Positions 5,034-62,149 of a stretch of 64,000 bases of DNA are shown here, one piece after another. This stretch comes from Octopus vulgaris (taxonomy: Eukaryota): assembly GCA_951406725.2 (NCBI GenBank), contig OX597820.1, forward strand, positions 15,252,001 through 15,316,000, given 5' to 3'. A program made the translations under genes and the position numbers. Numbering within the stretch: the first letter of the stretch is position 1; each line of letters starts with the position of its first letter. The notes beneath the pieces are model-generated. The model saw only the letters and a program-made list of their open reading frames with translations. It was not told the origin of the DNA and ran no database searches.

Positions 5034-5375
5034 CTAGCAAAGACACCCAGTGTTGCTCAGCTTTGTAAGGGAAAAAAATGCATTAAAAATGGGGAAAAAA
5101 ATGATGGTAAATTTTTTTTTAAATCGTTGACTCATTGTAGACATTTTAAGAGAGTTACTTCCCTTATATAATAGCGAAAAAATGCATTAAAATGGAAAAA
5201 GATGATGGTAAATTATTTTTAAAATCGTAGACTCACACTAATACCCAGAAGGGCTCGATATGAATCACGACTATAAGATACCCGGTTTTGGTTAAACTGC
5301 ACCGCAAAATGTGGGAGTAGTTAGGAATCTAAATCGTAGGAGACAGACACACAACTTCACTTTTATATATAAAGA
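5034..5375 (-). mobile_element. Non-autonomous Helitron
   Basis: Minus strand reads A|TC...CTAG|T with a subterminal hairpin-like motif; it is the reverse-complement homolog of 48547-48933. Confidence 0.85.
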
Positions 5376-6820
5376 TTAGCAGAGACACCCAGTGTTGCCC
5401 AAGAATGAAATTTTTCCTTATATTCTGAATAAAAATAATGATAATGATGATGATGACGAGGATGAGGACGATGACGACAACAACAACTGAAAATACAAAA
5501 TTTACAACTTTTATGAAAAGAGATGAATTCTACCACATATGTTGAAGGAACTTATGAAAGAGCTTCTGGGTAAACAACATTCTTTGTTTTCTGGTTTGGA
5601 GCAGAGACAAATAAGTCTTGCAAATTACCTACCCTGGAACAACCAACATAAAGGTGACCATGAAAAAAGCAAGCCAGTAGATTTCAAAGACTGACCTTGA
5701 GTTTTATTGACAGACATTGCAAAGCAAAGTCGCACTGAGAATTGTGTTCATCTGAACTCAAATTGCATGTCTGATGGTTTGATTGGAATTCTTGAACTGA
5801 AAGACTCTTCCCCAGAGGCACATCCATTGATAATGGTAGCTTCTGTCACTTTAGGTGGTAATATCTTCACAATCAACCTTGTCCCATTGCATAAGTTAGG
5901 ATCTAAATTTCTTAGAAGCATTATTGGGACTTCAGAAAAAGTTTATGTGGAGGAGTTCCAGATGGTTCAAGAGAATTAAGGAACTCTGTTGGGTAATGGA
6001 CAGCTTAATTTTCATGAAGGACTGAATCAACTGATTTGTACTTCTTAATGACTGTTGGAATCTTATTCATTAATTCATGGTTAATTCTTGCTACTGTCTC
6101 ATTTTTTGGAGCAAGAATTGCCCTTTCACACAACCATTTATGTGAATTATAATTATTACTTAAGCCTGGAAATACCCTGTTCTTCAATTCAGCTGGGGAA
6201 TTCACCATGATAGCAATATGAGCCAAACTGATATCACCATTCCCATCAAATGGTACTTTCCCATATCCTAAATGGAGGACCTATTTATTACATTGGTCCC
6301 CATGTAATAAAGCTCGCACATTAGTATTGAAGAAGAATTTTAGTACTTTATTCCACTGGTGTGAAGACTTAATGCATGCTTTTATTTCATCAGATCTTTT
6401 TCATCTCAGAATGACTGGTAATGTCTGTCTGAGGTCTCTTGGTTAAATTAATGTAACTCCTCCCATAGATTTGTTGTTGCCTCTGATGTCCTGTAAGGTT
6501 TTACCAAGAGTGCTCATTGCACTTCTATGTGACATGGTGCATTAATCTCAAATGATAAGGTGGCATTGTCAGAACCTGAATCTTTGCTTATGTTACAAAC
6601 TGGACTGTTATTTGTGACCAGGTTTAATGGTAATTTAAAAGCAGAATGTGCTGTTTGTCCTCCTGGGAGAATGGTGGCAGCAAAGCCAGACAATGGTACA
6701 GCAGCTGCAATTCTTTTTTGTTACCTTACCTTGGAGAGAAGCAATTTTGTTACAAATGTTTTACCTGTGCCACCAGGAACATCATGAAAGAAAATTCCTC
6801 TGCTTTTTTCTGGTGATTGT
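5376..6820 (-). mobile_element. Decayed Helitron RepHel fragment: Pif1-family helicase pseudogene plus 3' terminus
   Basis: Minus-strand translation gives FFHDVPGGTGKTF (Walker A, ~6759-6777), GGQTAHSAFKLP, LCERAILAPKNETV, PIMLLRNLDPNLCNGTRL, CFAMSVNKTQGQSL and HGHLYVGCSRVG...KNVVYPEAL* (stop ~5552). It carries several stops and frameshifts. A Helitron-type 3' end lies at 5377-5401. Confidence 0.92.
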
Positions 6821-14000: not shown

Positions 14001-17000
14001 TACAACACTTTCAGGCTTGAGAGTTTTTCAGTAACCTTTCTTTTATGAAAACAAGGTCATCATTATTTCATGTCTGTTTTCCATACTCGCATGGGTTTGA
14101 TAGGAGTTTGATAGGAGTTGGCAAGGTAAAGAGCACACCAGGTTCCATGTTTTGGCATGATTTTTTACAGCTGGATGCCCTTCCTAATGCCAACTGGATA
14201 TCCTTTCTAATGCCAGCTTTACAGAGTGTACTGGTATTTTTTACATGGCACCAGCACCACTGCTTTTTCATATGACACTGGCATCAGTGCTTTTTACGTG
14301 AATAATGACACTGAATCATCAATTTTAAGAGAATAAAATTTTCTATGCATGTTGAGTACTTTTCCTTCTGTTTATACATCCAAACACACATACACACCAC
14401 ACATGTTTGTTCATTTTACATCTATTTGTCCAAGTTTGCATGGGTTGGATGAAGACTTATCTGAGGCAGCATCATACAGCTGGATAGTTTTTTTTTTTAA
14501 GAAGTGAGATTTGAAAACCTCCCAACAAAACAGAGGGATACCAGAGGGACAAACAACACAAAAAGAGTGAAAATTAATGCCTTACAATTTAAGTGGAGGG
14601 AAAATGGACATAATATGAATGTAAAAAGGCTGTTTCATAGGTTTATCTATCTGTCCAAATCAAATAAATGCTTAAAAGATAAAGCAACCAAAAATCACAG
14701 AATGATGATAAGAATGAATGTTAACTTAAGTAGAGACATTAACTTACATCACAGTAGTCAATCAGTCTTTATAGAAGTTCATACAAATTTAACATTGAAT
14801 AGAAATGGAAATTAAAGAAGAAAATAGTTCGGTCATGTGTTAAAATTATTTCGAACATTAATTACAAGAATTAAAAAAAAAAAACCCCAGAAAACCTATA
14901 AAGAAATAGAAAAGATAAGGCAAGAACGTAATGAAACATCATCATCGTTTAGCGTCCGCTTTCCATGCTGGCATGGGTTGGACGGTCAAACACTGACAGT
15001 AAAATAACCACAAACATATATATTTATAAAACATAAATCTTTTTAATAGAGAAACTCAAAGCAGGTAAAGCTATAAATAATAGCAGGTAAATCTTGGGTT
15101 GAAAAACTCATAAGGTGGATAAAGTCAGGTTGAAGGCTGCCCAAGGGGACTCGAACATTTGTCGTATTTACAGAAGAGGTGGGTTCAAGTTCAGGCAGCC
15201 TTTGATTTCTACCATCCAAGGGCTCTTTTAATCCACTCTTTACATGCTATTAGTTAGAGCTTCATCTCCTTTGAGTATTCCACCATCAGAAATTATTTAT
15301 CTCGTGTCTCTTGAAGATCTTACACACACACACACACACACACACATACACAGCTGACTGATTTATTTTCATTAATGTATGATTTAAATTAAGAAAGTAG
15401 GATAAGCTGGAGACAGATGCCAGGGAAATACACTTGGGCTGACATTAATATTGTATTAGCTTCTCATAAAGTCTACTGAACTAGCCAAGTTGTTTAGAAA
15501 ACGAGAGGTATTAATTAGGGTTAAAATGCAACACAAATAGGTAACTAATTAAAGCAAAGAGAAAAAGCTATTAAAATTGCATTCCAGATATCTAAAAACT
15601 TCGTGAATTGCACACACTCATTTTTTTTTTTTTTTACTATTTTAAACCGAGAAAGAAAACATTTAAATTATTCCTTCCAATATAGATCAAATGTTTTGCT
15701 GATTTTAAACTAATTGACTTAATAGGTACGCACAATCTAAGTTGAGTCCCCAGTGCAGCGGATGTTCATGGTAAACACATTAAAATGAATGATAAACATT
15801 GGTGTTATTTGATTCGTTTGCACTGCAACGAAATACTTGTACAATTTTAAAAAGTACGAAGATGTAAAGGAAAAACAAAAAGGGACAAGTGTTTTGATAT
15901 TCCTTCTGATTCAATGATAGCCCATCACTAAATCAAATCATATTTTTACTTAAAATGATATACTGTACATAAACAGATGAGGAGGCGTAATGGCCCAGTG
16001 GTTAGGGCAGTGGACTCATGGTCAAAGGATCGCGGTTTCTATTCCCAGACTGAGCATTGTATGCGTTTATTAAGTGAAAACACCTAAAGCTCCATGAGGC
16101 TCTGGCAGGGGGTGGTGGCAACCCCTGTTGTGCTCTTTCGCAACGCTGCAATGGACTGGCGTCCTGTCCAGCTGGGGGGAACACATACGCCACAGAAACT
16201 GGGAAACCGGGACCCATGAGCCTGGCTAGGCTTGAAATGGGCGCATAAATAAAAAAAAATATATATCTACAGATACATTTTGCTATGTCATACATATTGT
16301 AGTACAGATAAGTCAAAATTTACTTATAAAATATAACAAGTACCAAAACACACACACGAGGTATAATGAAGGCTTTAATCAGTAAATTGTTTACTGTTTG
16401 ACACATAGCATACGTAAAAGGATAAAGATTATTTTTGAGTCAAGTAAACTCATAAGGATCAGTTTCCTGTTTTCTATGGCGTATGAATTCCTGACCTGGA
16501 CAGGACAGCAGTCCATTTGCAGGATTACTGATTTTTGAGTGGACTGGAGTAACATGAAATGAAGTGTTTTGCTCCAGAACACAATGTGTTGCTCAGTCCA
16601 GGAAGTTACAATCATACAGTCAAGAGACTAACATTCTAACCACTCAGCCACACACCTCCACCATATTCTTTTACTTGTTTCAGTTATTCGACTGCAGCCA
16701 TGCTGGAGCACCACCTTTAATCGAGCAAATAAACCCCAGGACTTACTCTTTGTAAGCCCAGTACTTATTTTATCGGTCTCTTTGGCAGAACTGCTAAGTT
16801 ACGGGGACATAAACACATCAGCATCAGTTGTCAAGTTTGGGAGACAAATGTTGGGGAACAAATGTTCAGCACAAAGACATATACATATATATATATATAT
16901 ATTATGGGCTTCTTCCAGTTTCCATGTACCAGATCCATGTATAAGGCTTTGATTGGCCCAAGGCTATAGTAGAAGACACTTGCCCAAGGTGCCAAGCAGT

Positions 17001-19770
17001 GGGATTGAACCCTGAAGCATGTGGTCGGGAAGCAAGCTTCTTACATCATAGCCACAGCATACTAAACACATGAAAAACCTTCAATGAGAAGATAATGACC
17101 ACAGGGCAGTTTTAGTCATTTTCCCATAGCTTATTTTAATCATAATTATATAAAATATATGCATTGAGTACACACAAGCATTCATATATATTGATGCATA
17201 CATGTGCATCTGTATTCATCCGAAAGTGTGTTTGTTCATTCATGCCACCTCTTCACTTGGGGATAAGCAAAGGTGAGGAAATAATACCATTTGCACACAT
17301 CACCATAGACACATATGACAGGCTTCTATATAGTTTCCAGTGGCAATTTCCATGCAGAAAGTATCGGTCATACTTATGAATGGAATTAATAAATACAACT
17401 ATATATACACACACACACACCCATGTGTAAATATACATATACAGAGACATACAGACGTTAAATGATGATGATGAAGATGATGAAAATGATGACGATGACG
17501 ATGATGATGATGATACATATACACATAGAGATATATGTGTATGTGCACAGTTATGTATGTATGTTTTAAATAGAACCATATGTTTTTATACAAGAGACTA
17601 ATGTCAAACCATTAAGCCAATAATCTAGAAATCTCTACAGCCTCACACAACACTATATAAAAAGAGAAAGTATTATGCAATAAATTTAATTGGTTAAAAA
17701 GAAATTAGTTTTAACCAAAGTATATGTTCAAATTTTTTAAATGGAAACTTGGAAATAATCTAAATTTGGTAGACCAACTATAGTAATAGTTAAAAACTAC
17801 ATATATTGTCATCTTGCTACAAAATACTAAAATGCAATCCAAAATATAAAAAGTTTTTGGTCCTTGTTTTAAATTACTTATTCACATTTCAAATGTTACA
17901 TATTTTAGGTCTCAGCCAAGTCAATAACGCAAGCTAGAGTGTGATATTCCAAGTCTACAGATTTATATAGTCATAAGTGTGTGTCTGTGTGTTGGTGGGT
18001 ATATAAATATGAATATATATATATATATACACACACACACATGTGTGTATGTGTGTGTGTGTTGATATATTAGTGATGTGAACATGAAAGGAAAGATCAG
18101 ATGCTATTTTGGATCTGGTATAATTTTGGCAGTTTCATTCAATTAGAACAGCAGCTGGTATTTAATTCCCCATGATGTCATATCACTACTTCGTTTACAG
18201 AGAAGAAGACAAGCCCATGTCTTTTATACAAAATTACATCAAGAGCAGTTTCAACAAATTTTGTTAAACAGCAGAAAAAAACAAAACAAAGGAAAACGAG
18301 AGTAAAAAAAAAAAATACTAAAAATTCCTTTCATACTGATTTTTGCAATTGAAACTAATTAGGAAGTGTTTTACTCGTACAAAACACACATATCTTCGGA
18401 TAAAAAGCACCAAAGTGTTAATGAGAAGTAATAATAAAAGATTGTCCCAAATGCTAGCAATCTGAAGAGAAATATTTATCTAGTCCTAAATAAATACTGA
18501 TGCAGGTAAGTACAGTTTACCTGAATGTTTATGTAACGTTATCTTATTAAGGAATAGACATTTTATGGCATGTATAGAAGAATTTGTATTTCTGTGGAAG
18601 TATGCTTTATGATGTGTGTATCACCATATAATTAATATATTCTGATACAGTCCAAAATGTGGCAGCAATGCTGAGGATTAAAACAACTTCTTATGAAATA
18701 CAATTATTTGCTACTTATGGAATACAATTATTAATTATAAGATACTTGGTGTAATTTTATATTACTTATATATTTTGCATTGCATGTAATTAAAAGAGAC
18801 AAAAGAAAACAGAAACGAGTCAAGGAGTCTACTGAAGGATAAAATATGAGATACATATAAGATGAGTGGCAGCTAAATGACAACATTTTAAAGTCTTCTA
18901 GACTTGTTGTAGACAGATGAAGGGTCTTAAAAGTGCAGGACACAGGATATAAAGTTTCAGTATGTTTGTATGTACAAACAGAAGAAATAGTACTCAATAA
19001 ATGTGTCAGAGAATATCTATTCATTTGAAGCTGATCTATAATCATCGTCTCCATCATCTCACAAGGGTCAGATGAAATTTGTTGAGGCAGATTTTCTATG
19101 ACCAGATGCCCTTCCAGTCACCAACTCTCACCTGTCTTTTGCAAGCTAATATCTCCCCCATAGCCAAACATCATTTCCAGAAGAATGGAAACAATATAAA
19201 ATACATAAAGTATACTCAAAGGAAGATGTTCTTATTGAGTACAAAAATCTTCTTTGAAATCATCATTCACTGATAGTTTTCCATGCTGGCATGGGTTGGA
19301 CAGTTTGACAGAAGCTGGTGAGTTAGAAGACTACAATGCACTCCAATGTCTGCTTCGGCATGGTTTCTAAGGATGGTTGCCCTTCCTTACATCAACCACT
19401 TCACAGAGTGTACTGAGTGATTTTCTATATGGCACTGGTACTAGAGAGGTCCCCCAAGTAACCTGCAAAAGAAAAGCCCTTAATTAAAGGTAGAGAGGCA
19501 TGCAATTGAGTGGGTTGGTTTTATGCCATGTGATGAGAGGTTAAAGTATGATAAGGGGACAGGAACAGGTGTTTTGCTGTAGGGAAGATATATGGTTACC
19601 CCAGTTGGAAAATAACAAGGATGGTGGTGAAGGTGTGTTAGGGCCTACCCTCAAGTTACAAGAAGGTGAAAAAAATTAAACAACATTATACATAAAATCT
19701 CCTCTCTACATCATCCAGATATTTTTTTGAAGTGCTTACAGTTTAATGTTCATAAAATTAGAACATTCAA

Positions 19771-31618: not shown

Positions 31619-31918
31619 ACATTATTTACATTTGACGGATATTTATCCTCATCTTGTTTGTTGTTAACACAATGTTTCAGCTGATTTACTCTCCAGCCTT
31701 CATCAGGTGTCTTTGGGAATTTTCGAACCTGGGTTATCATTCCTAAGGTATTTTTCGATGTTATTATTATTATTATTCAGGTCACTGCCTGGAATTGAAC
31801 TTGGAATCTTGGGATTAGTAGCCCATGCTCTTAGCCACTATGCCATATGCCTGAGGACAAATATCCGTCAAATGTAAATAATGTACATAATTCCTCATCT
31901 CTTAAAAACAGAACTGTA
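31619..31918 (-). mobile_element. tRNA-headed, hammerhead-containing SINE/retrozyme-like element with an inverted terminal duplication (copy 1)
   Basis: Minus strand: tRNA-like head 31851-31779 (TGGCATAGTGG A-box, GTTCAATTCC B-box), (TAA)n at 31761-31777, hammerhead motif at 31711-31666. Inverted repeat 31619-31651 versus 31852-31884 (32/33 identical). Confidence 0.8.
31666..31711 (-). ncRNA. Minimal type I hammerhead ribozyme motif (probably decayed)
   Basis: GACAC-CUGAUGA-A-GGCUGG-agaguaaa-UCAGCU-GAAA-C-AUU-GUGUU: stem I GACAC/GUGUU, core CUGAUGA and GAAA, 6-bp stem II with two G-U pairs, no full stem III. Confidence 0.7.
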
Positions 31919-36469: not shown

Positions 36470-37070
36470 CATTATCATCTTTCAATTCTGTTTCCATTTC
36501 TTGCCAAGTGTCTTCCTGACACCTAGGGCAGAGAAACGCACTGTATACATTGGTAGGCCATTAAAATAAAAATACCAGATTGTCCATTTACAAAGTCATC
36601 TGATAGAGAAAAAGGGGAAGAAAGACAGAGAAAAAACAAAAAAGTAAAAAAAAAAATGAAGGGGAAAAAGAGAGAAAATTCACAGTGACAATGCTCTTCT
36701 CAATATGTGTGACATACCAGTTAAAACAACCTTTTGCACTTCCTGCATGGATGGTAAGCCAGGAATCATTCTTAAATAATTTTTAGTTCCTTTTTTGATC
36801 ATTCCAAGTGCTCCTACAATCATTGGTATTGTAACCGTCCTGAGATGCCACCTCTTTTTGATTTCGATTAGGAAATCTTTATATTTTCTGAGCTTACCAA
36901 AATCTTTTGCCGAAATATTATGGTCATAGAGTATGCTCATGTCAATCAATAAACAGACTTCACTGTTATGGTCTTTCACAACAATATCTGGTTTGTTTGC
37001 TTTGATGGTCTGGTCTGTACATACTGGAAAGTCTCAAAGAATAGTTACATTTTCTCCCTCAGTTACAGCC
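36470..37070 (-). mobile_element. R4/Dong-clade non-LTR retrotransposon 3' fragment (restriction-like endonuclease domain)
   Basis: TDQTIKANKPDIVVKD...LIDMSI...KLRKYKD...IPMIVGALG...VQKVVLTGMSHILRRALSL* (stop at 36680); the 3' end runs into a (TAA)n-rich tract at ~36428-36470. Confidence 0.85.
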
Positions 37071-38656: not shown

Positions 38657-39999
38657 CTGCAAAAAAACAAAACAAAATGAAACAAAATTACAAAACTGAA
38701 ATTACAATAAATAAATAATAAATTAACAAAAATAACGTTAGCAATAACAATAAAAAAAAATGGTTGCTTATATAATCAAGAAGTAAAGAAGAAATGTTAA
38801 GTCAAGCAATTGTATCTTTCTAAAGAAAACTAACATTATAGGTTGAAGTGATTGGAAAATTGAAATCAAAACTGAGCCCCTATCATAATAATTGCCAGCA
38901 GCAGCAGTAGGCCTCATGAGGGTGTTTTCAGCAGCTTGAGAGCAGGATCAAATTGACCAGGTTCTAACAACTCAACAGTTGAAAGAAGCAAAAGACACCT
39001 CTTTTACTCTTTTATTTGTGTCAGTCATTTGACTGTGGCCATGCTGGAGCACCGCCTTTAGTCGAGCAAATCAACCTCAGGACTTATTCTTTGCAAGCCT
39101 AGTACTTATTCTATCAGTCTCTTTTGCCAAACCGCTAAGTTACGTGGACGTAAACACACCAGCATCGGTTGTCAAGCAATGTTGGGGGGGACAAACACAG
39201 ACACATTATATACGACAGGCTTCTTTCAGTTTCTGTCTACCAAATCCACTTGCAAGGCTTTGGTTGGCCTGAGGCTATAATAGAAGACACTTGCCCAAGG
39301 TGCCAAACAGTGTGACTGAACCCAGAACCATGTTGTTCGTAACCAAGCTACTTACCACACAGCCACTCCTATGCCTATTACAACACCTGTTAATACATAT
39401 TGATCACATTAGTGCTTATATTCATGTAAAGCAACAAACACCTTTAACCAAGAGATCAGAACTTATTTCTAAGTGCTGACATAAGAATAAGTACTCTCTC
39501 TCCAAACACAATAGACCTATCAAACCACAATTAATGCTAACAGAGCAACCAGGTGTCAATAATTCTTTATCTTGTGGGAGAGGAGGAGGACAATGACTTT
39601 TACATGTACAGTAAATCTTGGGTATCACAAAACTGTAACCTAAGCTCTCAAGGAATATGAAAAGAACTTCTACATAGTACCCTTATTAAATTTTAAAGTA
39701 GTTGAATATGAGTTATTTTATGAATCTTCCACCTAGGTATAAACTGAAAGGCTCTAAAATAATGCTGGATGGCAGGGGCATGTACATGCTTTATGCCACA
39801 TCTAATATGTCCTAGAAATAACACACTACAAAAGCGGGATTGTACAATAAGCCTCAGATACCATTATAGAAAGAGGAGTTTGCATCACTGGGAACTGCTG
39901 GTTAGTGACACCCTTTTGACATCTTGAAATGGTCATAACTGCATTCGATTACTCAGTGAAGATCATGGTCATGTGAATCCAAGCAAGATCAACACAGTG

Positions 40000-46600: not shown

Positions 46601-48546
46601 ATAAGCATTCAATGAGAACGTTTGCTATAAGAATGCACAAATATCTAAACTTTCAATATCTTTTACACTGCATATGAACATATAGAAAGAAACTAAAGTG
46701 CTTCAGCATAAATATAAATGAAACCCAGCAAAATCATGGCAAGAACTGTCCTTTATAATATACAAGTTAATAGAAAATACAAAGGAAAACAGGTTTTGAG
46801 AATGAAACTATTGAACAGTATATCTTTTTAAAGTAACATTGTGAATAAAACCAATCAAAATAATTGCAATTATTCCTTGAAATAAAGCCTTCCAAATGCT
46901 CAGAATGCTCCACAATAATAACTGATTGTCTAAATGGCTTCATTAACAATGGAAGTGGGTGTTCCAGAAGTATAGCAGCCAGTATAAGAACAAAGCAGTA
47001 AAAGTTCAGGGAAATTTGTTATAAAAAAATGCTTTAACCATTTAACTTCTGATGGCGACACAAGAATTTTCTCTCTTCAGTGAAGAGTAGATTGCATGAG
47101 TCATGTGTAAGAAGTTTATTACTGTATGGTAATGAAGCATGACCACTGAATGCCGAGGATGAGTGAACTACCATTATCTATCCACTGGAGGAGTAATGTT
47201 CAGTGCATGAATGATTTAATACAAATGAGTTGAGAAAAACTGAGTATAGAAGGAATCAAATGTAGTATGGAAGACAGAAGCTACATTGGCACCAACATGT
47301 GGAGCAAATGGATATGATAGGGACAAGGGTGGAGGTGGGATTTGAGAAGCTTGCTTCCCAATCATATGGTCTTGGGTTCAATCACATTGCATGACACCTT
47401 GAGCCAACCAAGCCTTGTGAGTGGAATTGGTAGACAGAAACTGAAAGAAGCCTGTTGTATATGGATATGATTGGGACAAGGGTGGACACACATATGTATA
47501 TGTGTGTCTGTATTTGTCTCCCCCACTCCCAACATCGCTTGGCAACCGATGCTGGTGTGTTTGCGTCCCCGTAACTTAGCGGTTCGGCAAAAGAGACTGA
47601 TAGAATAAGTACTAGGCTTATAAAGAATAAGTACTGGGGTCGATTTTCTCGACTAAAAAGGCGGTGCTCCAGCATGGCCGCAGTCAAATGACTGAAACAA
47701 GTAAAAGAAAAAAAGAAAGAAAAAAAAAGAATAAAGTTACAGAAAGAAGTGGTGAAAATTGATTTCAGGATAGTGAACCTTGCAAAGGAAATGACTATGA
47801 CGTGATGAAACACTGCACTGGAAAAAAAAAAAAAAACTGTCTAAGATATGACCATTATCAGTATCATCATGATTATCATCATCATGAGAAAGATGACAAT
47901 GATGATGAACATGCAAGTGGATATAAATTCAGGATGGAAAAATTGTAGCTAATCAAGGCAAAGCAAAGCTGAATTTTGTTTAAATCTTAAAACGTTAGAT
48001 ATCACAAATGAGATGACATAACTGATGTATGAAGTAATGGCAGTGTCACGAAATACAAATACTGAGCCAATGAAAAATACGTTGGCAAATTCACACGATG
48101 AAATTTTTATTTTTAATTACCAGACAACTTTAAAATTACGTAGCTAGATTAAAATGTGCTCTGATAAATTTCGGTTTGAAGCAGAGATTATCAAGATGGA
48201 GCAAGGTTATATTGCTAAAGTTGGTAAACAAATTAGAGGATGGTAGAGATAGAAAAAAAAGAAAAAACAAGAACTACCAAATCAATGTATGAAAGGAAAT
48301 GATTGCATTACTGATAGAGAGAAGTTATACAAGTAAATTAGAGAAAACAGGTATATAAAGGCTGATGTAAAATGAACCGACATATCAAGATTACAGTAAA
48401 ATTTCGAATTACAGAAGAGCATTTGTTGATCTACTCAGATGTTTAATCCAGATAAGTATCTGTTACTGAATATTGGGAGTAAAATATAGAGGAGAAATTA
48501 GCATAAGAATATTAAGAATACCATACAGTCAATCAACATATGTACA

Positions 48547-48933
48547 TCTTTATATATAAAAGTAAGGTTGTGTGTCTGTCTCCTACGATTTAGATTCCTA
48601 ACTACTCCCACATTTTGCGGTGCAGTTTAACCAAAACCGGGTATCTTATAGTCGTGATTCATATCGAGCCCTTCTGGGTATTAGCGCGCGTCTACGATGA
48701 GTCTATGATTTAAAAAAAAATTTACCATCATTTTTTCCCATTTTAATGCATTTTTTCGCTATTATATAAGGGAAGTAACTCTCTAAAAATGTCTACGATG
48801 AGTCAACGATTTAAAAAAAAATTTACCATAATTTTTTTCCCATTTTTAATGTATTTTTTTGCTATAACTCTCTAAAAATGCTTATATAGTTATTTCCCTT
48901 ACAAACCCGAGCAACGCCGGGCGATACTGCTAG
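48547..48933 (+). mobile_element. Intact non-autonomous Helitron (387 bp)
   Basis: Inserted at A|T with no TSD; 5' TC; 3' CCCGAGCAACGCCGGG hairpin followed by CTAG; internal ~100-nt tandem duplication; CpGs preserved, suggesting a young copy. Confidence 0.9.
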
Positions 48934-49259
48934 TCACTTATAAAATAATATACATCAGTCCCATAAAATAATAGTCTGACCTAATAAAACTACTTAACTT
49001 CCTTTATAAATAAAGAAATAAGAAAGACTTTTGTGAAAAATGTCACATATTTTACAGCTTTACTAGTTTCTGTCACTAGACTGCAACCATACTAAGACAC
49101 AATCTTCAAGGGTCAGTCAATAATATCAATCCCAGTACTTATTACCAACTGGAATGTATTTTAACAATCTCTGTTTGTTGAACTGGTAGGTTATGGGACA
49201 TAATGGGATAAAATATAAACAACACTAGTTGATATACTGGTGCAAACATAAACATGGTC

Positions 49260-50400
49260 ACAATTTGTGAGGGAGTTGTACATGTGCTTTGTTGATATGG
49301 AGAAGGCATTGAAGAAGAGGGGTGTACTAGAGGTAATAGCAAGGGCAGTGATGAGTTTGTATGAGGGGGTAAAGACAAGAATTAGAATTGGATCAGAGCT
49401 GTCAGAGGAATTTGTGGTGAAAGTTGGTGTGCATCGGATCTGTGTTGTCACCGTTGTTGTTTGCAATAGTGGTTTATGTGGTGACAGAGAGAGCAAGAGA
49501 GGGATTAATAGTGGAGATACTGTATGCAGATGACCTTGTTCTCATGAGTGAGATGATCGAGGGATTGAGGGAGAAGTTTTTGAAATGGAAGGAGGCGTTT
49601 GAAGGCAAGGGTTTGAAGGTAAACCTCGGAAGACAAAGGTGATGGTGAGTTGGGAGGAAGGAGAAGTGTTAGTGAGTAAGGTGGATCAATGTGGTGTTGT
49701 GTATGGGATGTGAGAAATGGATTCATGGTAGATGTACGAAAATGAAGAAGGTGACTCCAAGACTGGCGAGAGAGTTTGTTTGTGGAAGATGTAAGGAAGG
49801 AGCAGGAGGGCTGGCGGAACCAGTGGAAACACTACGTAACGAAGTGGAAACAGTGAGAGGGTTTTGTTATTTGGAAGTTAGGGTAGATGTAAGTGGTGGA
49901 TGTGAAGCAGCTGTGACAGCAAGAGCAAGACTTGGCTGGGTGAAGTTCAGGGATGTGGAGTGTTGTTATATGGGAAAAGGTTCTCATTAAAGATAAAAGG
50001 AAGGGTCTATAAGAGTTGTGTGAGAGCTGAAATGTTGTACGGGAGTGAGACATGGTATCTGAGGGAGAGAGAGATGGTAATTTTGAGAAGGACTGAGAGA
50101 GCAATGGTAAATATGTGGGGTGAAGCTGTTTGATAAGAGGAGGACTCAGGACTCGATGGGGATGCTGGGGTTGGAGGAACTGGTGGAATGGTTGGCAAGG
50201 GCGAATGGAGGGAGGTGGTATGGGCATGTGTTGAGGAGGGTCATTGCGTTTGAGGTAAATGGAGTGCAAAAGCAAAGTAGACCAAGGAAAAGGTGGAAGG
50301 GACAGGTGGAGGGGGGATTCAGAAGGTTGGTTTGAAAAAGGAGGACATCCAAAACAAGGCAAAAAGGTGAGATGGTGTGAGGGCAGTTGCTATGGCATTA
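49260..50400 (+). mobile_element. RTE-clade LINE fragment (reverse transcriptase pseudogene with a PHD-like Cys/His insert)
   Basis: LYMCFVDMEKA, GSVLSPLLFAIV, ILYADDLVL, GLKVNLG, FCYL, KGRVYKSCVR..MLYGSETW and RWYGHVLRR; frameshifted and internally deleted. Confidence 0.92.
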
Positions 50401-51959
50401 AGGTAGTGTGTGTGTTTGTCCCCCAACCATTGCTTGACAACTGATGTTGGTTTGTTTACGTGCCCGTAACTTAGCTGCTTGGCAAAAGAGACCAACAGAA
50501 TAAATACTAGGCTTACAAAGAATAAGTAGGCGCAGGAATGGCTATGGGTAAGAAGCTTGCTCCTCAACCACATGGTTCCATGTTCAGTCCCACTATGTGG
50601 CACCTTGGGCAGGTGTCTTCTACTATAGCCACGGGCTGACCAAAGTCTTGTGGGTGGATTTAGTAGACGGAAACTGAAAGAAGCCCGTCATGTGTGTGTG
50701 TGTGTGTGTAGTCGTGTCTGTGTTTGTCCCCCCACTATTGCTTGACAACTGATATTGGTGTATTTACATCCCCATAACTTAGCGGTTCAGCAAAAGTGAC
50801 CAATAGAATAAGTACTAGCCTTACAACGAATAAGTTCTGGGGCCGACTTGTTCGACTAAAGGCAATGCTCCAGCATGGCCACAGTCAAATGACTGAAACA
50901 AGTACAAGAATAAAACCACATGCCATTTCTACCCAGAATTATTTCTTTCTACACATAATATACATCTATCCAAGCTATTTCAAAATAAAATTTTGAAACA
51001 TTAAAATAAGGGTAACGACAACAGTTTAATGGATAACATTCAATTATTGATATTTTTCAAGCCTGTTGCCTTCCTAAAGAAAAATATTGGTACTAGAGTC
51101 AGCAAAAATATAGCAAACAGCTCAAATAATTACAGGATATACTTTATTTATTCATGTAGAAGTCACACTGTTCTACATTTGATTCTAAATGAGAAACAGG
51201 GTGCAATTTATACACGAGGAAATGCTAAAAATTATGAAGGGAAAAATTTTGTACTAAATTAGGAGTGCAATTTATACATGAGTAAACACAGTATATTAAT
51301 TTGCAGACGCAGTGCATAATTGGTAGAGCATCAAACAAAATATCTTGTGGTGAGAAAATACCTAGTGGTATTTAATTGCATCCGATTATATTTTTAATAC
51401 AAATCCTCTCTAGTTTCCCTTTCTCTTTCATCCTTCCATGGTTGGTAAAATATATTACAAGGGAGGATATTGTTAATTATACTCTAAAAGTCAGTATTTC
51501 AGCATGGCTACAGTTCAATGACTGGAACTAATAAAAGAATAGAAAGAACTAAGACTTGCCACTTGATTCCACAAAATATACTAGGATCCAAATTCATTAA
51601 TTCAATTCTTTGCAGTCAGCAGTGGAGTTAAATACACTGCTAAAAACACACTGGCCTCCGCTACTCACGTAGCTTGAGGGAATTAAAGCTAAAAGTAATA
51701 AATAGATTCACTATCGTTATCACTGCATGATAAGGATTTCAGCGAAGCAGAACAGCAGATGGAAATAGTAATGAAAATATATGTTAATAGTGTGTGGAGT
51801 GGGGACAAATTAGAGACTGATGGCGAGGCATGAAGTTATCTTGGAGCAAACTGCTCCAGTTTGGCAATGACTTAGATATGATCAAAATGTTTACGAAGTA
51901 AACATGAATAGCTTCTTGACCACAGTGAAATTTTTTCAACTCTTAAAACTGAAGTTACA

Positions 51960-52359
51960 GGCGTAGGAGTGGCTGTGTGGTAAGTAGCTTGCTTACCAAC
52001 CACATGGTTCCAGGTTCAGTCCCACTGCGTGGCATCTTGGGCAAGTGTCTTCTTCCATAGCCTCAGGCCAACCAAAGCCTTGTGAGTGGATTTGGTAGAC
52101 GGAAACTGAAAGAAGCCTGTTGTATATATGTATATATATGTATGTGTGTGTTTGTGTGTCTGTGTTTGTCCCCCCAACATTGCTTGACAACCGATGCTGG
52201 TGTGTTTATGTCCCCATAACTTAGCGGTTCGGCAAAAGAGAGCAATAGAATGAGTACTAGGCTTACAAAGAATAAGTCCTGGGGTCGATTTGCTTGACTA
52301 AAGGCGGTGCTCCAGCATGGCCTCAGTCAAATGACTGAAACAAGTAAAAGAGTAAAAGA
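51960..52359 (+). mobile_element. SINE family B (tRNA-like head, CORE-like segment, internal (TA)/(TG) tract, (AGTAAAAG)n tail)
   Basis: GGCGTAGGAGTGGCTGTGTGGTAAG...CTTGGGCAAGTGTCTT...GCTCCAGCATGGCC...GACTGAAACAAGTAAAAG. At least ten further copies, e.g. ~1625-2020(-), 8650-8980(-), 12262-12645(+), 16665-17060(-), 28480-29027(-), 39003-39375(-), 47345-47710(+), 50528-50913(+), 56050-56658(+) and 60825-61218(+). Confidence 0.9.
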
Positions 52360-55309
52360 ATATATGGGGTAGAACACTGGCGTCTATGAAAAGAATTCTT
52401 AAAATGTTTTGATCCAATTTCAACTTGAAGTTTCCACATGTAATAAGTGTCTAGAATTGATAAGACATTATTTAAAAAATTAATAAAAAAGAACTTGGTT
52501 TATAGTAAGAGGTAGGCCAGACAACACATGGAAGGATTTAGAACAGATTAAGAGTACTGGAACTTACAGACGAAGTAATTATGAAACGAGACTGGGTGAG
52601 AGAAGCAACTTAAGCTTACACAGAGAAGCAGGCATTCAATAATGATATTTGAAATTACAAAATCTTTCTTTAAATATTCAATGAGTATTTTGAAGTCTAA
52701 TGCAGTTGGCTACATGACAGGCAACCACTTGCCAAGCTTTGGCTTCAATTATACATGCATTGTTACATATGTAAAGTTGGTCTGGTAACAATTAGAGCCA
52801 GGTGGATTTATTCAAGGGGAAGACAAAAAAGAAAAGAAAAATTTTGATGATGATAACGATTATGATTGCAATGAACATTAGAGGCAAGGTGAAAGTGTTT
52901 TTTTTTCTTTTCTTTTTTTTTGAGAAAAAAAATTTGGAAATTTGTTATAAAAAATGCTTTAACCATTTTGTTACCATATTTCCATTGAAATACATTGCAT
53001 TTGTTTTAATTAATTTTGAAAATGATGAAAAATTAATTAAAATGACATTCATTGACGAAAGGTTTTAATCTAACAATTTAAAACTGGAAGTGTATATCAG
53101 GACCAATGGCAGTCTCAGGTGTGTTGGTACCAAAATGGTTAAACAGTGAAATCTTTTAAGTCGGACAAGACTGATAATGAACAACCAATTCAAAAATACT
53201 GAGGGTATTGACTCAAAAGATTTGTTAAAACTGGAACAATTAAATTATAGAAAATGTTACCAGTGTCGCCTTACTGGCACTTGTGCCGGTGGCACGTGAA
53301 AAGACATTTGAGCGAGGTCGTTGCCAGTGCCACTGGACTGGCTCCTGTGCAGGTGGCATGTAAAAAAAACACCATTTGAGCATGGCTGTTGCCAGTACTG
53401 CCTGACTGGCCCTCGTGCCGTTGGCACTTTAAAAGCACCCACTACACTCTTGGAGTGGTTGACGTTAGGAAGGGCATCCAGCTGTAGAAACTCTGCCAGA
53501 TAAGATTGGAGCCTGATGCAGCCATCTGGTTCGCCAGTCCTCAGTCAAATTGTCCAACTCATGCTAACATGGAAAGCGGACGTTAAACGATGATGATGAT
53601 GATGATGATGATGAAAATACTGATCTACCAGCAATATAATTCAGGCCAACAATGACCAGTGACTGTCCTCTACAAGATCCTACAAGCTTTTCCACACAAA
53701 CAATATTGCATGAAATTTCAATTTTTTCCACACTACAACGTTGTAATGCTGAGCTACACAATGAAACATAAGTTTTTAAAATACACCTGGACGTACAAAG
53801 GTATACAGTTTAAGACCACAGACTATTTAAACTAGTGAAAGCACATAGCCAAGTGGTTAGGGTGTCGATCATGGTTTTGATTCCCAAACCAGCAGAGTAT
53901 TGTGTTCTTGAATGAAATACTTCATTTTATGATGTTTCTGTCCACTCAGCTGTAAATGGCCCTGCAATGACTGATCTCTCGATCAAGGGGAATGTTGAGA
54001 TTTCAGTCACTTACATGCCATGAAAACCAGGTAACCAGCAAGGTATCTCAAAAGAAATTAAATGAGAAAAATAGCCTACAACATCCAAATGATACCTGGA
54101 CAAATTCCTCCAAGAAGCACCAGACAAACCATCAACACCTGGATACATATCAATCAACAACAACTCCTTGCTCGAGTGGTCCATGGTGTCTCAAAACATG
54201 ACTTAAAAGACCTCTCTAGGTGGCGCTATTACGTTAGTCAAGGCCTGGACCATTAATTGGCCAAAACCAATCTAAATTATCTAAGTTAATTGATCAAGAT
54301 ACCTCAAATCAATATCAGCTGCTTCTCTACAACTAACCTTGTCTTGAGTTTAAGCACCCTATATAAACCTTAGGGAGTTATAACAATTGTATACTTCAAC
54401 TACAGCCTCTACAAGTCAACAAGGATGTGAAAGTCCTTACATGGTCACACAACCTACTAGAAATAGGAGGTAAATCTCCCTCAAATCAAACAATCTTTAA
54501 AATTGAAAAAAAAAAAAAGCACCTTAGATAATGTAGTTCTACAAATATTTTAAAAAATAGGAAGGTCATATGACTGAAATGTCTTTGATTATCAATCTGC
54601 TTGATCAAGTTGACCAGGAAGCAAAATAACAACTTTCTGATATACAAAAACAGATTAGGCAATCAACTTGCATGTATCATGACTGACCTGCTACAGTGCA
54701 TCTCTTACACATTCCATTCAAGTTTATATCCTCTCCTAAATAAAACTGAAACCTAATGCCTGAGTGAAAAACTACCAACACCACTTGTAGCCATATTTAT
54801 CACCAGCTCAAAATAACACAATATACTCTATTGCAAACCAGGTTACATTTATCATGAATTGATCTGTGATAACACAGGTAAGTGATCATTGAAAGGCTCT
54901 TTCTGCTTGTACTACAAAAAGGTGCCCCATCAATCACCCACAATGCACTTGCGTTTATGTGAGTATGCTGCAAGGCTGCATATTTTTTATACAGATTTAG
55001 ATATTTGCACCTATCAACAAATGATCAGTGAACAGAGGAAGTAAAAAAGTGGCTGATCCTAACAACACAGGTGAGTGTATTCTGTTCAGGGAAAAGTAGA
55101 GATCAAGAAAATACAGGACAGTGAAAGCTTCACTGTTGTGGGTTGTAAGTTTGGGGTCAATAAATTTACTAATTATTTAATTTTTTAACTGAACCATTGT
55201 GGTAAATGAGGAGAAATGTGCTACTATATGCTACAATTTTTATTGGCACAGTGAATGATTTAATTGGTGGAACACTGGCCAAAATATTCAGCAATTTCTT
55301 TATTGATGT

Positions 55310-55580
55310 GTTTGATTCCTGGTGGTACACTGTGTTCTTGAGCAAGACACTTTATTTCACATTGCTCCAGTCCACTCAACTGACAAAAATGAATTGTACC
55401 TGTATTTCAAAGGGGCCAGCTTTGTCATTTTCTGAGTCTCACTGAGTCCCCCTGAGAACAACATTAAGGGTACGTGTGTCTGGGGAGTGCTTAACCACTT
55501 GCATAGTAATTCTACAAATAGGCTGTTCCTATGATCAGACCCGCTGGAACCCTTGTCATCGTATCCGGCAGAGCGCCAGT
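55310..55580 (+). mobile_element. CORE-type SINE with a distinct 3' tail (family E)
   Basis: GTGTTCTTGAGCAAGACACTTTATTTCAC..GCTCCAGTCCACTCA CORE-like block; a homolog at ~63770-64000 runs off the window end. Confidence 0.7.
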
Positions 55581-56145
55581 GTATACATGTATGTCTGTCT
55601 TCATATTTTAAGTTGAAATCTGAGGGTGGTTTTGCTTCCATTCTTCCAGGGTCAATAAACAAATACTTACTAGTCAAGCACTGTGGCTGATCTAATCAAC
55701 TACATTGCCACTCTTCAAACATTGTGGCTTTGTGCTGATATTAGACATCATCATCATTATTATTATTATTGTTACTAAAATAGCTTAAACAACTATAGTC
55801 ATTATTGTTGTTTATTTATGTTCTTTCAGATGCAGCCCATATTGTTGGAAACCATACCAAGATATTCTTCTCTAAAAATAGGATTAAGAGAAAGAAAATG
55901 GCAAAATGAAACACTGTTTGTTCTTTTAAATGTTTTGAGTTGGACTAAACTATCCTGTCTAACTCATCCTAAATAATCTTCTTAATAACTTACAGAGAGC
56001 TACTTTCTTTTCTTCAATGATTTTTTTCTAAGTAATATATAGTAGATGTAGGCAAGGCTGTGTGGTTAAGAAGCTCACTTTACAATGCTGTAGTTACAGG
56101 TTCAGTTTCACTGTGTGTCACTTTGGGTAAGTGTCTTCTATTATA

Positions 56146-56377
56146 TATTTCTTTACTGCCCGCAAGGGGCAAAATATAGAGGGGACAAACAAGGACAGAC
56201 AAAGAGATTAAGTCGATTACATCGACCCCAGTGCGAAACTGGTACTTTTATTTATTGATCCTGAAAGGATGAAAGGCAAAGTTGACCTCGGCGGAATTTG
56301 AACTCAGAATGTAATGACAGACGAAATACCACTAAGCATTTCGCCCAGTGTGCTAACGTTTCTGCCAGCTCGCCACT
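56146..56377 (-). mobile_element. Family C SINE nested in a family B SINE, 10-bp TSD
   Basis: TTCTATTATA at 56136-56145 and 56378-56387; the family B sequence resumes seamlessly after the insert. Confidence 0.88.
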
Positions 56378-56774
56378 TTCTATTATAGCCCCAAGCCAAC
56401 TGATACCTTGTGAATGAATTTGGTAGATGGAAAATGTGTTGAAGCCAGTCATATACATAAGTGTGTGTGTGTGTGTGTGTGGCAACTGGATGTTAGTTTG
56501 TTTATGTCTCCTTAACTTAGTGGTTTGGCAAAAGAGACCAACAGAATAAGTACCTGACTAAAATAATAAGTAGTGGGTCTGATTTATTCAACTAAACCCT
56601 TCAAGGCAATGCTCCAGCATGGTTGCAGTTGAATGACTGAGACAAGTAAAAGACAAAAGATAGTATGTAAGCCACCACTAATTAATCTGTTCTATTTTGG
56701 ATGCTTAGAGCTTTCAAAATTGCTAAGGAGAGCAATCTGGGATGCTGCCCAATGCTTACAAAAGAGATCTTTAA

Positions 56775-56991
56775 CCCTTTCATTACTGTATTTATTTTGA
56801 GATTCTCTGTTTTTCTCTCAATTATTTTAAATATCACAAAGAATTTAGTAAAATAACTTATCATTAATCTAGTGTTAGGAACATTAATTGTGACTAAGGT
56901 TTGGTGAAAGATTTTAATTCAAAACTTATGAAAACAAGACATTTGTACTATAGAGCCAGAGCCGGTTTCAGCCAGGTTAGTAACGAAAGGG
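56775..56991. mobile_element. piggyBac-type MITE (family P1), best-preserved copy
   Basis: TTAA|CCCTTTCATTACT...AGTAACGAAAGGG|TTAA (12/13 TIR, TTAA TSD). More decayed copies at ~3500-3651, ~44780-44988, ~52960-53142 and ~58560-58742. Confidence 0.88.
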
Positions 56992-57410
56992 TTAAGAAGA
57001 TTCAACTAAATCGAGAAAATAGATATCAAGAAAAGGAAACAGTAATTGTAAAACATCTGCTCCCGGAAGATATATTTCTTATGTTACAACACAGTTAAAA
57101 TACGCCAGAACCAAGGAAGAAATTTCTACATGGTTACTTAACTTACTAGAAACAGCAGCCAAATTTCCTTCAAGACAACCATACGGTCTTATTTGAAGAA
57201 AAGTTTACTTTATATAGTCTCATATAAAAATCACCACTGAAACTAGTAAAGCATTGATTCAGAATATGTATCCATAATTGCAAGATTATCTATCTATGTA
57301 TCAGTTAGAAATCCAACCAATGCCAGAATTACTAACTTTGGTAGGTTTTCAGAGAACTAATGTTAGTTTAAGTATTTTAGGATGTTGGCTATCACATCAA
57401 AGGGTACTCA

Positions 57411-57639
57411 TTAACCGTTTAGCATTCAGATTACTCTGTCAAGTTGAACACTTAATTAACCACAAGGTTTTGAATGAATTATGCATTATATTTGTAGCTT
57501 TGAGATTTAGGTGGTGTGACTGTATGCATTTAGAATGACATTGTAGGGTAAGTGTAAGAGGCCAGATAAGGACAGTTTGAGCATAAAGCAGATAGCATAT
57601 TTGGATTGGATATGACTGGTTTAAATGCTAAGTGGTTAA
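57411..57639. mobile_element. piggyBac-type MITE (family P2)
   Basis: TTAACCGTTTAGCATT...AATGCTAAGTGGTTAA. Confidence 0.75.
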
Positions 57640-61247: not shown

Positions 61248-61984
61248 TGTACATTATTTACATTTGATGGATATTTGTCCTCATCGTTTTTGTTGTTAAC
61301 ACATTTCAGCTGATATACTCTCCAAGCCTTCATCAGGTGTCTTGGGGAAATTTCGAATCTGGGTTCTCATTCCTAAGGTATTTTCTGATGTTGTTGCTAT
61401 TATTATTATTATTATTATTCAGTAGTATATTTTTTATATCGTGCTTTCACTTCACTACCGAGCGCAGCTCTGTGTGCCTTGGGTATGTGCTGTGATTTGT
61501 TGTGATGCTCTGATGGTTATTGTATGGAAAGTGTTCTGTGTAGGATGTGTGCAGTGCCCAGTAGTGCAATTTTCTGTATGTTATATGTGTTTGTAAGTCC
61601 TGGTGTTTTTGTTATGTATTTGTCTGAATATTCTTTTATCATGCCTAATGCACCTATTATGATAGGAATTGTTTCTGTTTTTAGATTCCACATTCTGGTT
61701 ACCTCTATTTCCAGGTCTTTGTATTTTGAGAGTTTCTCCATTTCTTTTAGAGACACGTTGTCATCCGCTGGTATTGATACATCAATTAGAAAACATTTTT
61801 TTTCTTCATGATCTCTGACAACTATATCTGGTCTGTTGGCCTTAATTTCTCTATCTATGTGTATTGGCATATCCCAGAGTATGGTTATTATTATTATTAT
61901 TATTATTATTCAGGTCACTGCTTGGAATCGAACTCGGAATCTTGAGGTTAGTAGCCCGTGCTCTTAACCACTATGCCATATGCC
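61248..61984 (-). mobile_element. tRNA-headed hammerhead element (copy 2), interrupted by a Dong insertion
   Basis: 61248-61419 and 61885-61984 are collinear with 31619-31851. Hammerhead remnant at 61299-61340 (ACAC-CTGATGA-A-GGCTTGG...TCAGCT-GAAA-TGTGT); B-box GTTCGATTCC intact. Confidence 0.85.
61420..61884 (-). mobile_element. 5'-truncated R4/Dong-clade retrotransposon (RLE domain plus 3' UTR) inserted in (TAA)n
   Basis: Uninterrupted frame ILWDMPIHIDREIKANRPDIVVRD...LIDVSIP...EKLSKYKDL...IPIIIGALG...IQKIALLGTAHILHRTLSIQ* (ORF 61517..61870); (TAA)n tracts on both sides. Confidence 0.92.
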
Positions 61985-62149
61985 TGTGGGCAATTATGTA
62001 TTGGAAAGTATTGCTTGAAAGTAGCAGATTATGTAGTAAACTCTTTTAGAATGAGAGGAAGGTGTGATAGCCTTATGACTGTCTGACGTAATAGTACCAT
62101 AATCAACAGTGACAATGATAAAGATATATTAGAGAAATAATTATAGTTT

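Follow-up and report, generated by a model that had tools for sequence, protein, structure and literature searches.

The window analysed here is a 64,000-nt stretch of the Octopus vulgaris genome. On its minus strand lies a repeat unit that consists, from 5' to 3', of a tRNA-like head, a (TAA)n tract, a spacer and a hammerhead layout and ends at 31619, in the order of parts that a sequence-only reading had described. A second copy is present at 61248-61984, as that reading also had it. The features of both copies, in window coordinates, are as follows.

31852..31918, plus strand: inverted second arm, with the last 33 nt of the body and a Penelope 'tail' of ~33 nt; assigned as a head-to-head junction with the forward arm from the tail match and the 33-nt repeat
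31776..31851, minus strand: tRNA-derived head, covering tRNA +2 to about +62 and closing with a short stretch that is not tRNA
31835..31845, minus strand: predicted Pol III A box, from sequence; A-box-like in 58 of 75 heads
31791..31800, minus strand: predicted Pol III B box, from sequence and family majority; one CpG-type change here
31761..31775, minus strand: (TAA)n tract of variable length, where other elements frequently land
31712..31760, minus strand: spacer; in the family majority it carries the first ATG of an 836-codon frame
31666..31711, minus strand: minimal type I hammerhead, here with two decayed CpGs
31711-31707/31670-31666, minus strand: hammerhead stem I
31706-31700, minus strand: hammerhead core, with its GAAA at 31678-31675, minus strand
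31698-31693/31684-31679, minus strand: hammerhead stem II
between 31671 and 31670, minus strand: predicted hammerhead cut
31619..31665, minus strand: 3' part of the pseudo-LTR (pLTR), terminating as the short (tail-less) class of 3' end
61909..61997, minus strand: second copy, ORF-side leader of about 13 nt (61985-61997) and tRNA-derived head
61418..61886, minus strand: 5'-truncated LINE 3' end in the TAA tract of the second copy; restriction-like endonuclease region by translation
61248..61390, minus strand: second copy, spacer, damaged hammerhead and 3' part

The locus is a small example of the insertion pattern of its family, a full solo arm joined to a 67-nt opposite arm. The 33-nt inverted repeat with one mismatch (31852-31884 against 31619-31651) had been recognised earlier, but the inverted piece extends further than was then thought, to 67 nt (31852-31918), because it also contains the ~33-nt family tail that is absent from the forward arm. 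No target duplication was seen by eye around this copy. Rfam scans of the window and four loci gave no hammerhead and no tRNA match, ARAGORN called no tRNA in the whole window, and a relaxed ARAGORN run on one head returned only a spurious call on the opposite strand. These misses are expected, as the hammerhead is minimal and the head lacks an acceptor 3' strand. No host gene could be named from a crude exon scan of the window.

In the second copy 3 nt are missing from the hammerhead's stem III palindrome, and the TAA tract is split by a ~470-nt LINE 3' fragment, which we take to be Dong/R4-like from a motif and the TAA target; Pfam assigned this insertion to no family. The same LINE 3' end occurs in 10 fetched loci at 89-97% identity (L012, L039, L046, L057, L068, L073, L074, L175, L178 and L278). 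In the window, as in L012, L175, L178 and L278, it was seen within the TAA tract. The 3' ends of two more repeats lie directly 5' of the TAA tract (L092, L140, L144, L168, L176 and L180; L132 and L146). This recurrence of repeat 3' ends marks the tract as a landing site for several elements. Both the LINE 3' end and the tRNA head finish with CTGAA followed by (TAA)n, an ending that suggests the head may itself have arrived as a small TAA-targeted tRNA retrocopy.

Other repeats are present in the window. A fragment of a different LINE with a restriction-like endonuclease lies near TAA repeats at 36680-37033 (minus strand), and decayed RT-related coding fragments at 49191-50389 are presumably RTE-like, judged by their motifs. 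Helicase-like frames at 6005-6280 (minus strand) carry a motif by which we take them to be Helitron-like. Positions 5073-6280 and 48546-48860 hold an inverted pair of about 300 nt, 90-97% identical and 43 kb apart. Further abundant dispersed short repeats (e.g. 16664-17055, 39000-39381, 50382-50915 and 52092-52359) often contain an internal microsatellite; BLAST showed the other dispersed short repeats of the window to be unrelated to the pLTR unit.

The unit is the terminal repeat of a coding Penelope-like element

Several copies of the unit run upstream into coding sequence. A 97-residue query taken from this sequence gave 150 scored matches among 2,656 candidates. Head and/or body follow downstream on the same strand in 29 of the 30 endonuclease loci listed (one being the query's own locus), at a spacing of about 220 nt or more, and the inverted piece lies upstream in 14 of the 30. 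RT motifs were found upstream of the endonuclease region (Pfam RVT_1, E 1.6e-9, in the natural copy L102), and the protein has 291 protein relatives. After the RT, the C-terminal translation shows a pattern like the endonuclease of Penelope-like elements (PLEs), and the homolog P0002, from a sister family at 60-70% protein identity, has the same domain layout. We take the endonuclease to be of GIY-YIG type on these motifs and the domain order; Pfam gave no family for the endonuclease region and no GIY-YIG match on P0001, L068 or P0002, and a PDB sequence search returned 0 matches. The domain order, with no Neptune-type Zn-finger linker evident by eye, points to a Penelope/Poseidon-type protein.

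Body and tail lie directly upstream of the ORF N-terminus in L092, L094 and L118, and L118 carries a pLTR at both ends of the ORF. A tail-ORF junction pattern had 172 matches at up to one mismatch; among 30 of these, L304 and L305 contain head, body, tail and ORF, and L307 a true tandem junction. The majority element is 2,792 nt long with a single 836-codon open frame, whose first ATG sits in the spacer, so that the frame passes through the hammerhead. In the master, the ORF stop is followed after 28-34 nt by the tRNA head, and then come (TAA)n, the spacer with its ATG, the minimal hammerhead, the tail and the next ORF. As it flanks the ORF on both sides, the unit is the pLTR of an autonomous Penelope/Poseidon-type element of the same genome.

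The Penelope partner with a shared 3' end that had been anticipated from the window thus exists in the same genome, and the link of the family to Penelope elements holds. The idea of a separate non-coding SINE does not, since the partner shares the whole unit including the head: the unit overlaps the ORF start and is no SINE with a borrowed tail. What we found is a whole unit inside a coding element, not a non-coding lineage sharing only its 3' tail with a partner. The label 'retrozyme' also fits poorly, as head-to-tail arrays are rare; no more than 3 of 96 arms were flagged as tandem, with isolated arrays in L013 and L299.

Those arrays differ in form. L299 has three headless units at 1507-2364 (oriented), each a body, a tail and 81 nt of ORF start, and is retrozyme-like. 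L013 has full units head-to-tail, and L302 and L311 are dimers with 40-81 nt of ORF start.

ORF-linked and short copies share variants. At the free hammerhead position N7, a T/A variant occurs in 5 of 15 ORF-linked copies, against 23% in the general sample. A variant common to long and short copies fits descent of both from shared masters, and there may be some solo masters besides the coding element.

Family size and insertion signature

Searched for exact matches, the 2.8-Gb genome showed the pattern of the intact hammerhead 1,917 times, a 28-mer of the spacer 5,053 times and a pattern from the head 2,616 times. Each reversed control gave 0, which excludes chance as the source of the family. 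The exact hammerhead pattern was present in 3 of 96 spacer-anchored arms and the exact spacer in 3 of 30 hammerhead-anchored arms; from these small counts, the family comprises very roughly 50,000-60,000 arms. Nine arbitrary 10-kb genome stretches contained 0 copies. A run search returned the stretch in at least 20 entries from 11 studies and 6 organisms, with no RNA data among the entries listed. The spacer-anchored sample used below has 96 arms from 90 loci. It accounts for 96 of the 100 matches listed first, all on one contig.

Most genomic copies are solo pLTRs, and many are two arms head-to-head, often with a 9-15-nt target duplication. The inverted piece was present at the 5' end of 48 of the 96 spacer-anchored arms, a recurrence expected from the window copy. 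In 68 two-armed insertions, the tail was carried by one arm in 61 cases, by neither in 6 and by both in 1. A flanking duplication of at least 8 nt accompanied 26 of the 68, and 19 of these 26 measured 11-15 nt (raw counts with no shuffle background). An inverted 5'-truncated copy and a one-sided 30-40-nt tail are described for PLEs (PMC8557442). The hammerhead, the inverted 5' arms, the one-sided tail and the 9-15-nt duplications are all known Penelope traits.

The hammerhead decays like its surroundings

The conservation of the hammerhead was scored on the 96 spacer-anchored arms, which are thus unselected for the ribozyme. Their majority sequence has the full core (CUGANGA and GAAA-C-G-U-H), a 5-bp stem I, a 6-bp stem II, an unpaired base before stem II and the palindrome AACGTT. 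Reverting the two CpG positions of the window copy, as had been proposed, was right: the majority is an intact minimal type I hammerhead with AACGTT. This layout matches the minimal hammerheads described for PLEs (PMC4209133). Individually intact hammerheads were found in 20 of the 96 arms, the copies being decayed descendants of few masters, and the sole common core variant outside CpGs is T to A at N7 (23%).

The CpGs of the hammerhead keep C/G at 74/81% and 86/64%, and CpGs outside it at 80/83% and 82/75% (96 arms pooled, sense-intronic copies included with the rest). The two changes in the window copy can be put down to ordinary CpG decay, which is not accelerated in the ribozyme relative to CpGs elsewhere, and the suggestion that decay of the ribozyme had been favoured by selection finds no support.

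In the predicted monomer fold, stems I and II form and part of the core is paired, in line with a weak, dimer-dependent cleavage. The ends of the inverted arms lay within about 11 nt of the predicted cut site in 7 of 48 cases and exactly at it in 0, and we do not claim that these arms begin at the hammerhead cut. A metagenome scan gave only 9 distant loci. A distant PLE on a metagenome contig (L281) has the same hammerhead layout with different stem sequences. Its hammerhead lies at about 2380-2430, about 200 nt past the ORF match; it has 15 runs of T4, and in the 420 nt inspected of its T-rich 3' UTR we saw no tRNA head.

The tRNA head and the 5' wall

Aligned without gaps to tRNAs of the genome, the family head matched tRNA-Arg(TCG) best, at 38 of 59 positions (z 9.5 against shuffles); the parent may differ, as the comparison covered 30 tRNAs called among 31 fetched, of seven isotypes only. 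The head is collinear with the tRNA from +1, and the earlier description of it as tRNA-like can be sharpened to tRNA-derived. In the majority sequence both of its Pol III boxes, A and B, are undamaged. Every one of the 30 head-anchored loci goes on into the TAA tract, and among them we saw no parental SINE that joins this head to a different body; 6 of the 30 were without a body within 1.4 kb.

The 5' ends of the copies form a wall at the start of the head. Position +1 is preserved in 75 distinct heads, of which 61 end at -6..+1 and the other 14 extend into sequence from the ORF side. Of the 30 head-anchored loci, one reaches far into the ORF and two end at -20 and -26. Among the 61 headed arms of the spacer-anchored set, 37 begin between -20 and +7 and 18 inside the head (+10 to +47), and 8 arms extend into the ORF (including L148- and L156). 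The three counts (75 heads, 30 head-anchored loci and 61 headed arms) are of overlapping loci and not independent. Position -6 lies 13 nt upstream of the A box and is a purine preceded by a pyrimidine, a combination typical of Pol III starts.

The wall also coincides with a palindrome, GCCC-AC-GGGC, which spans -6..+4 and extends imperfectly in the master. Mirrored fold-backs were found in 6 of the 75 heads, and 55 of the 61 stops are unmirrored. Template jumps from the ORF start in L300, L311 and L018 reach a head close to -6 and involve no fold-back, which speaks for a genuine RNA 5' end at this place. At the ORF-head junction of ORF-linked copies, e.g. L200 1335-1345 (minus strand), the 14 nt upstream imperfectly mirror the first 10 nt of the head; this resembles a decayed fold-back and may record the capture of the head.

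The 2,792-nt majority contains 0 sense-strand T4 runs, where synonymous shuffles predict 2.9. The probability of none was 0.030 under synonymous shuffling, 0.022 under codon-order shuffling, and 0.004, 0.046 and 0.16 under Markov nulls (0.16 for order 2). As a Pol III signature this absence is only suggestive, since GGGG is likewise absent from the majority element and four Dong-like control stretches are T4-poor too, with one T4 each. In RNA reads from 3 runs of one study on one organism, the two strands had about equal coverage (the library being of unknown strandedness and size selection). They showed no pile-up of starts or ends and no discrete transcript, which such a library may not retain, and the pattern fits read-through of many copies.

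Transcription and origin of the copies

We interpret the unit as a pLTR whose tRNA head is the likely Pol III promoter, and the window copy as a decayed solo insertion, likely made by the RT and endonuclease of the element (probability roughly 0.6). Under this interpretation, Pol III would start at about -6 in the upstream pLTR, and its RNA, meeting no TTTT, could run through the whole element. The element protein would nick AT-rich DNA and start reverse transcription from two internal sites, one on either side of the tail, as in Poseidon of Anolis. In that element two internal RT start sites enclose the tail, each DNA strand is cut and then extended, and the template requires the first 172 nt of the ORF (PMC11167929). 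By this analogy we infer an internal-priming step for the octopus element. Priming at the first pLTR-ORF junction would copy 235-270 nt to the RNA 5' end and leave a solo, SINE-like copy, and priming at the later junction would yield ORF-bearing copies. Two cDNAs primed on opposite strands would give the inverted pair. The hammerhead would be of the usual Penelope kind, probably weak, dependent on a dimer or on protein, dispensable for insertion and decaying neutrally afterwards; that of Anolis Poseidon is described as protein-assisted and dispensable for insertion (PMC11167929). Against this interpretation stand the RNA reads with no discrete transcript, the coincidence of the wall with the palindrome and the 18 headed arms that start inside the head. 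An uncapped Pol III RNA would also make a poor mRNA, so that Pol II read-through may be the source of the protein. The complete scheme, an autonomous Penelope element with a captured tRNA-type Pol III promoter, a terminator-free 2.8-kb sense strand and tens of thousands of SINE-like by-products of internal priming, is a tentative one to which we give somewhat less than even odds.

Solo units and short dimers could instead be masters in their own right, transcribed by Pol III and copied in trans, that is, an independent Penelope-dependent SINE or retrozyme. Solo heads do exceed ORF-linked heads (61 and 14 of 75), the deleted dimers and trimers with 30-430 nt of ORF start (L299, L300, L301, L302 and L311) are candidate non-autonomous masters, and L013 holds its head-to-tail array. 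However, the variants of the short copies are common to ORF-linked ones, tandem junctions were flagged in just 3 of the 96 arms, and all 30 head-anchored loci enter the TAA tract, with no other body seen. The ends of solo copies also lie at the tail or short of it, whereas Anolis Poseidon is described as needing template past its priming sites (PMC11167929). We consider an independent lineage unlikely.

The head might also be a passenger in Pol II or read-through transcripts, with the 5' wall being a Pol II start or a hot spot of RT fold-back and template switching at the palindrome. The position of the palindrome at -6..+4, its imperfect extension in the master, the 6 mirrored junctions among 75 and the RNA-seq data with no discrete transcript would suit such a head, and a promoter in the pLTR is the usual assumption for Penelope elements (PMC11167929). 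Yet 55 of 61 stops are unmirrored, jumps to unrelated templates land at the same place, and the majority keeps both boxes, A and B, intact; a hairpin would, moreover, be expected to stall the RT on entry and not at its far base. A passive head is thus quite unlikely in our judgement.

Relation to known elements

In the aspects described for Penelope/Poseidon elements of Anolis carolinensis (PMC11167929) and for PLEs with minimal hammerheads (PMC4209133, PMC8557442), the octopus element is a conventional relative. These have a single ORF with an N-terminal domain, an RT and, at the C terminus, a region of GIY-YIG type (putative in the octopus element), a pLTR that overlaps the ORF start, AT-rich targets, a 30-40-nt tail at one end and an inverted 5'-truncated partner arm. 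Their minimal type I hammerhead likewise has a long stem II, a short stem I and an unpaired base before stem II. Unlike them as described, the octopus element has an A/B-box head and (TAA)n between stop codon and hammerhead, 5' ends that pile up at tRNA +1, and no sense TTTT.

The Sm-alpha and Sj-alpha repeats of Schistosoma, as presented in PMC6765202, resemble the octopus unit in being short and dispersed with a Pol III-type promoter followed by a hammerhead. They are described there as non-coding and often tandem, with no autonomous partner named. In contrast to Sm-alpha, the octopus unit lies within a coding element, is mostly solo or head-to-head, and has a minimal rather than a canonical hammerhead. 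The metazoan non-LTR retrozymes are also pLTR-related, with a type I hammerhead and a proposed mobilisation by PLEs, but are described as non-coding and defined by head-to-tail tandem units, an arrangement rare in the octopus family; the words 'tRNA' and 'promoter' are absent from the main text of that paper (bioRxiv 10.64898/2026.07.22.740005). PLE-derived retrozymes, minimal hammerheads in pLTRs and the Pol III-plus-hammerhead repeats of Schistosoma are thus already known. The unusual part is a predicted tRNA-type promoter inside the terminal repeat, with a sharp 5' wall that appears, from the sequences compared, to be of its making.

The Cassandra TRIMs of plants, which are 5S-derived, non-autonomous and of the LTR class, likewise have part of a Pol III gene within their terminal repeat. 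The octopus tRNA-SINEs OK, OR1 and OR2, described by Ohshima and Okada in 1994, are reported to have an Arg-tRNA origin. They are tRNA-derived short repeats like our unit, as cited in PMC4758252 and PMC4824008, where OR1 and OR2 are given as CORE-SINEs. Compared by citation only, OK may be the same as the octopus unit, or the unit may be an unclassified library entry. The octopus repeat annotation, in the portion available to us, lists Penelope, Dong-R4 and hundreds of unclassified SINE families, with no description there of a tRNA-headed Penelope (PMC13282606), and the sequence may well be in a repeat library under another label. In the titles and abstract openings of the papers listed by literature searches, no tRNA-headed pLTR and no Penelope-dependent tRNA-SINE was described.

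Implications

The hammerhead and the inverted ends alone would be ordinary for Penelope elements, and in an annotation the octopus copies would be filed as unclassified SINEs. Their tRNA-headed pLTR is a possible model for hammerhead repeats such as Sm-alpha, and one short sequence makes two questions testable, the start point of Penelope transcripts and the role of the hammerhead in the pLTR. SINEs are usually viewed as arising when a Pol III gene is fused to a LINE tail. A Pol III-type head inside the terminal repeat of an autonomous element would let a Penelope element give rise directly to a SINE-like family. If this is true, a SINE would have been born within its own partner, in the Penelope class, for which we found no SINE partner in the literature.
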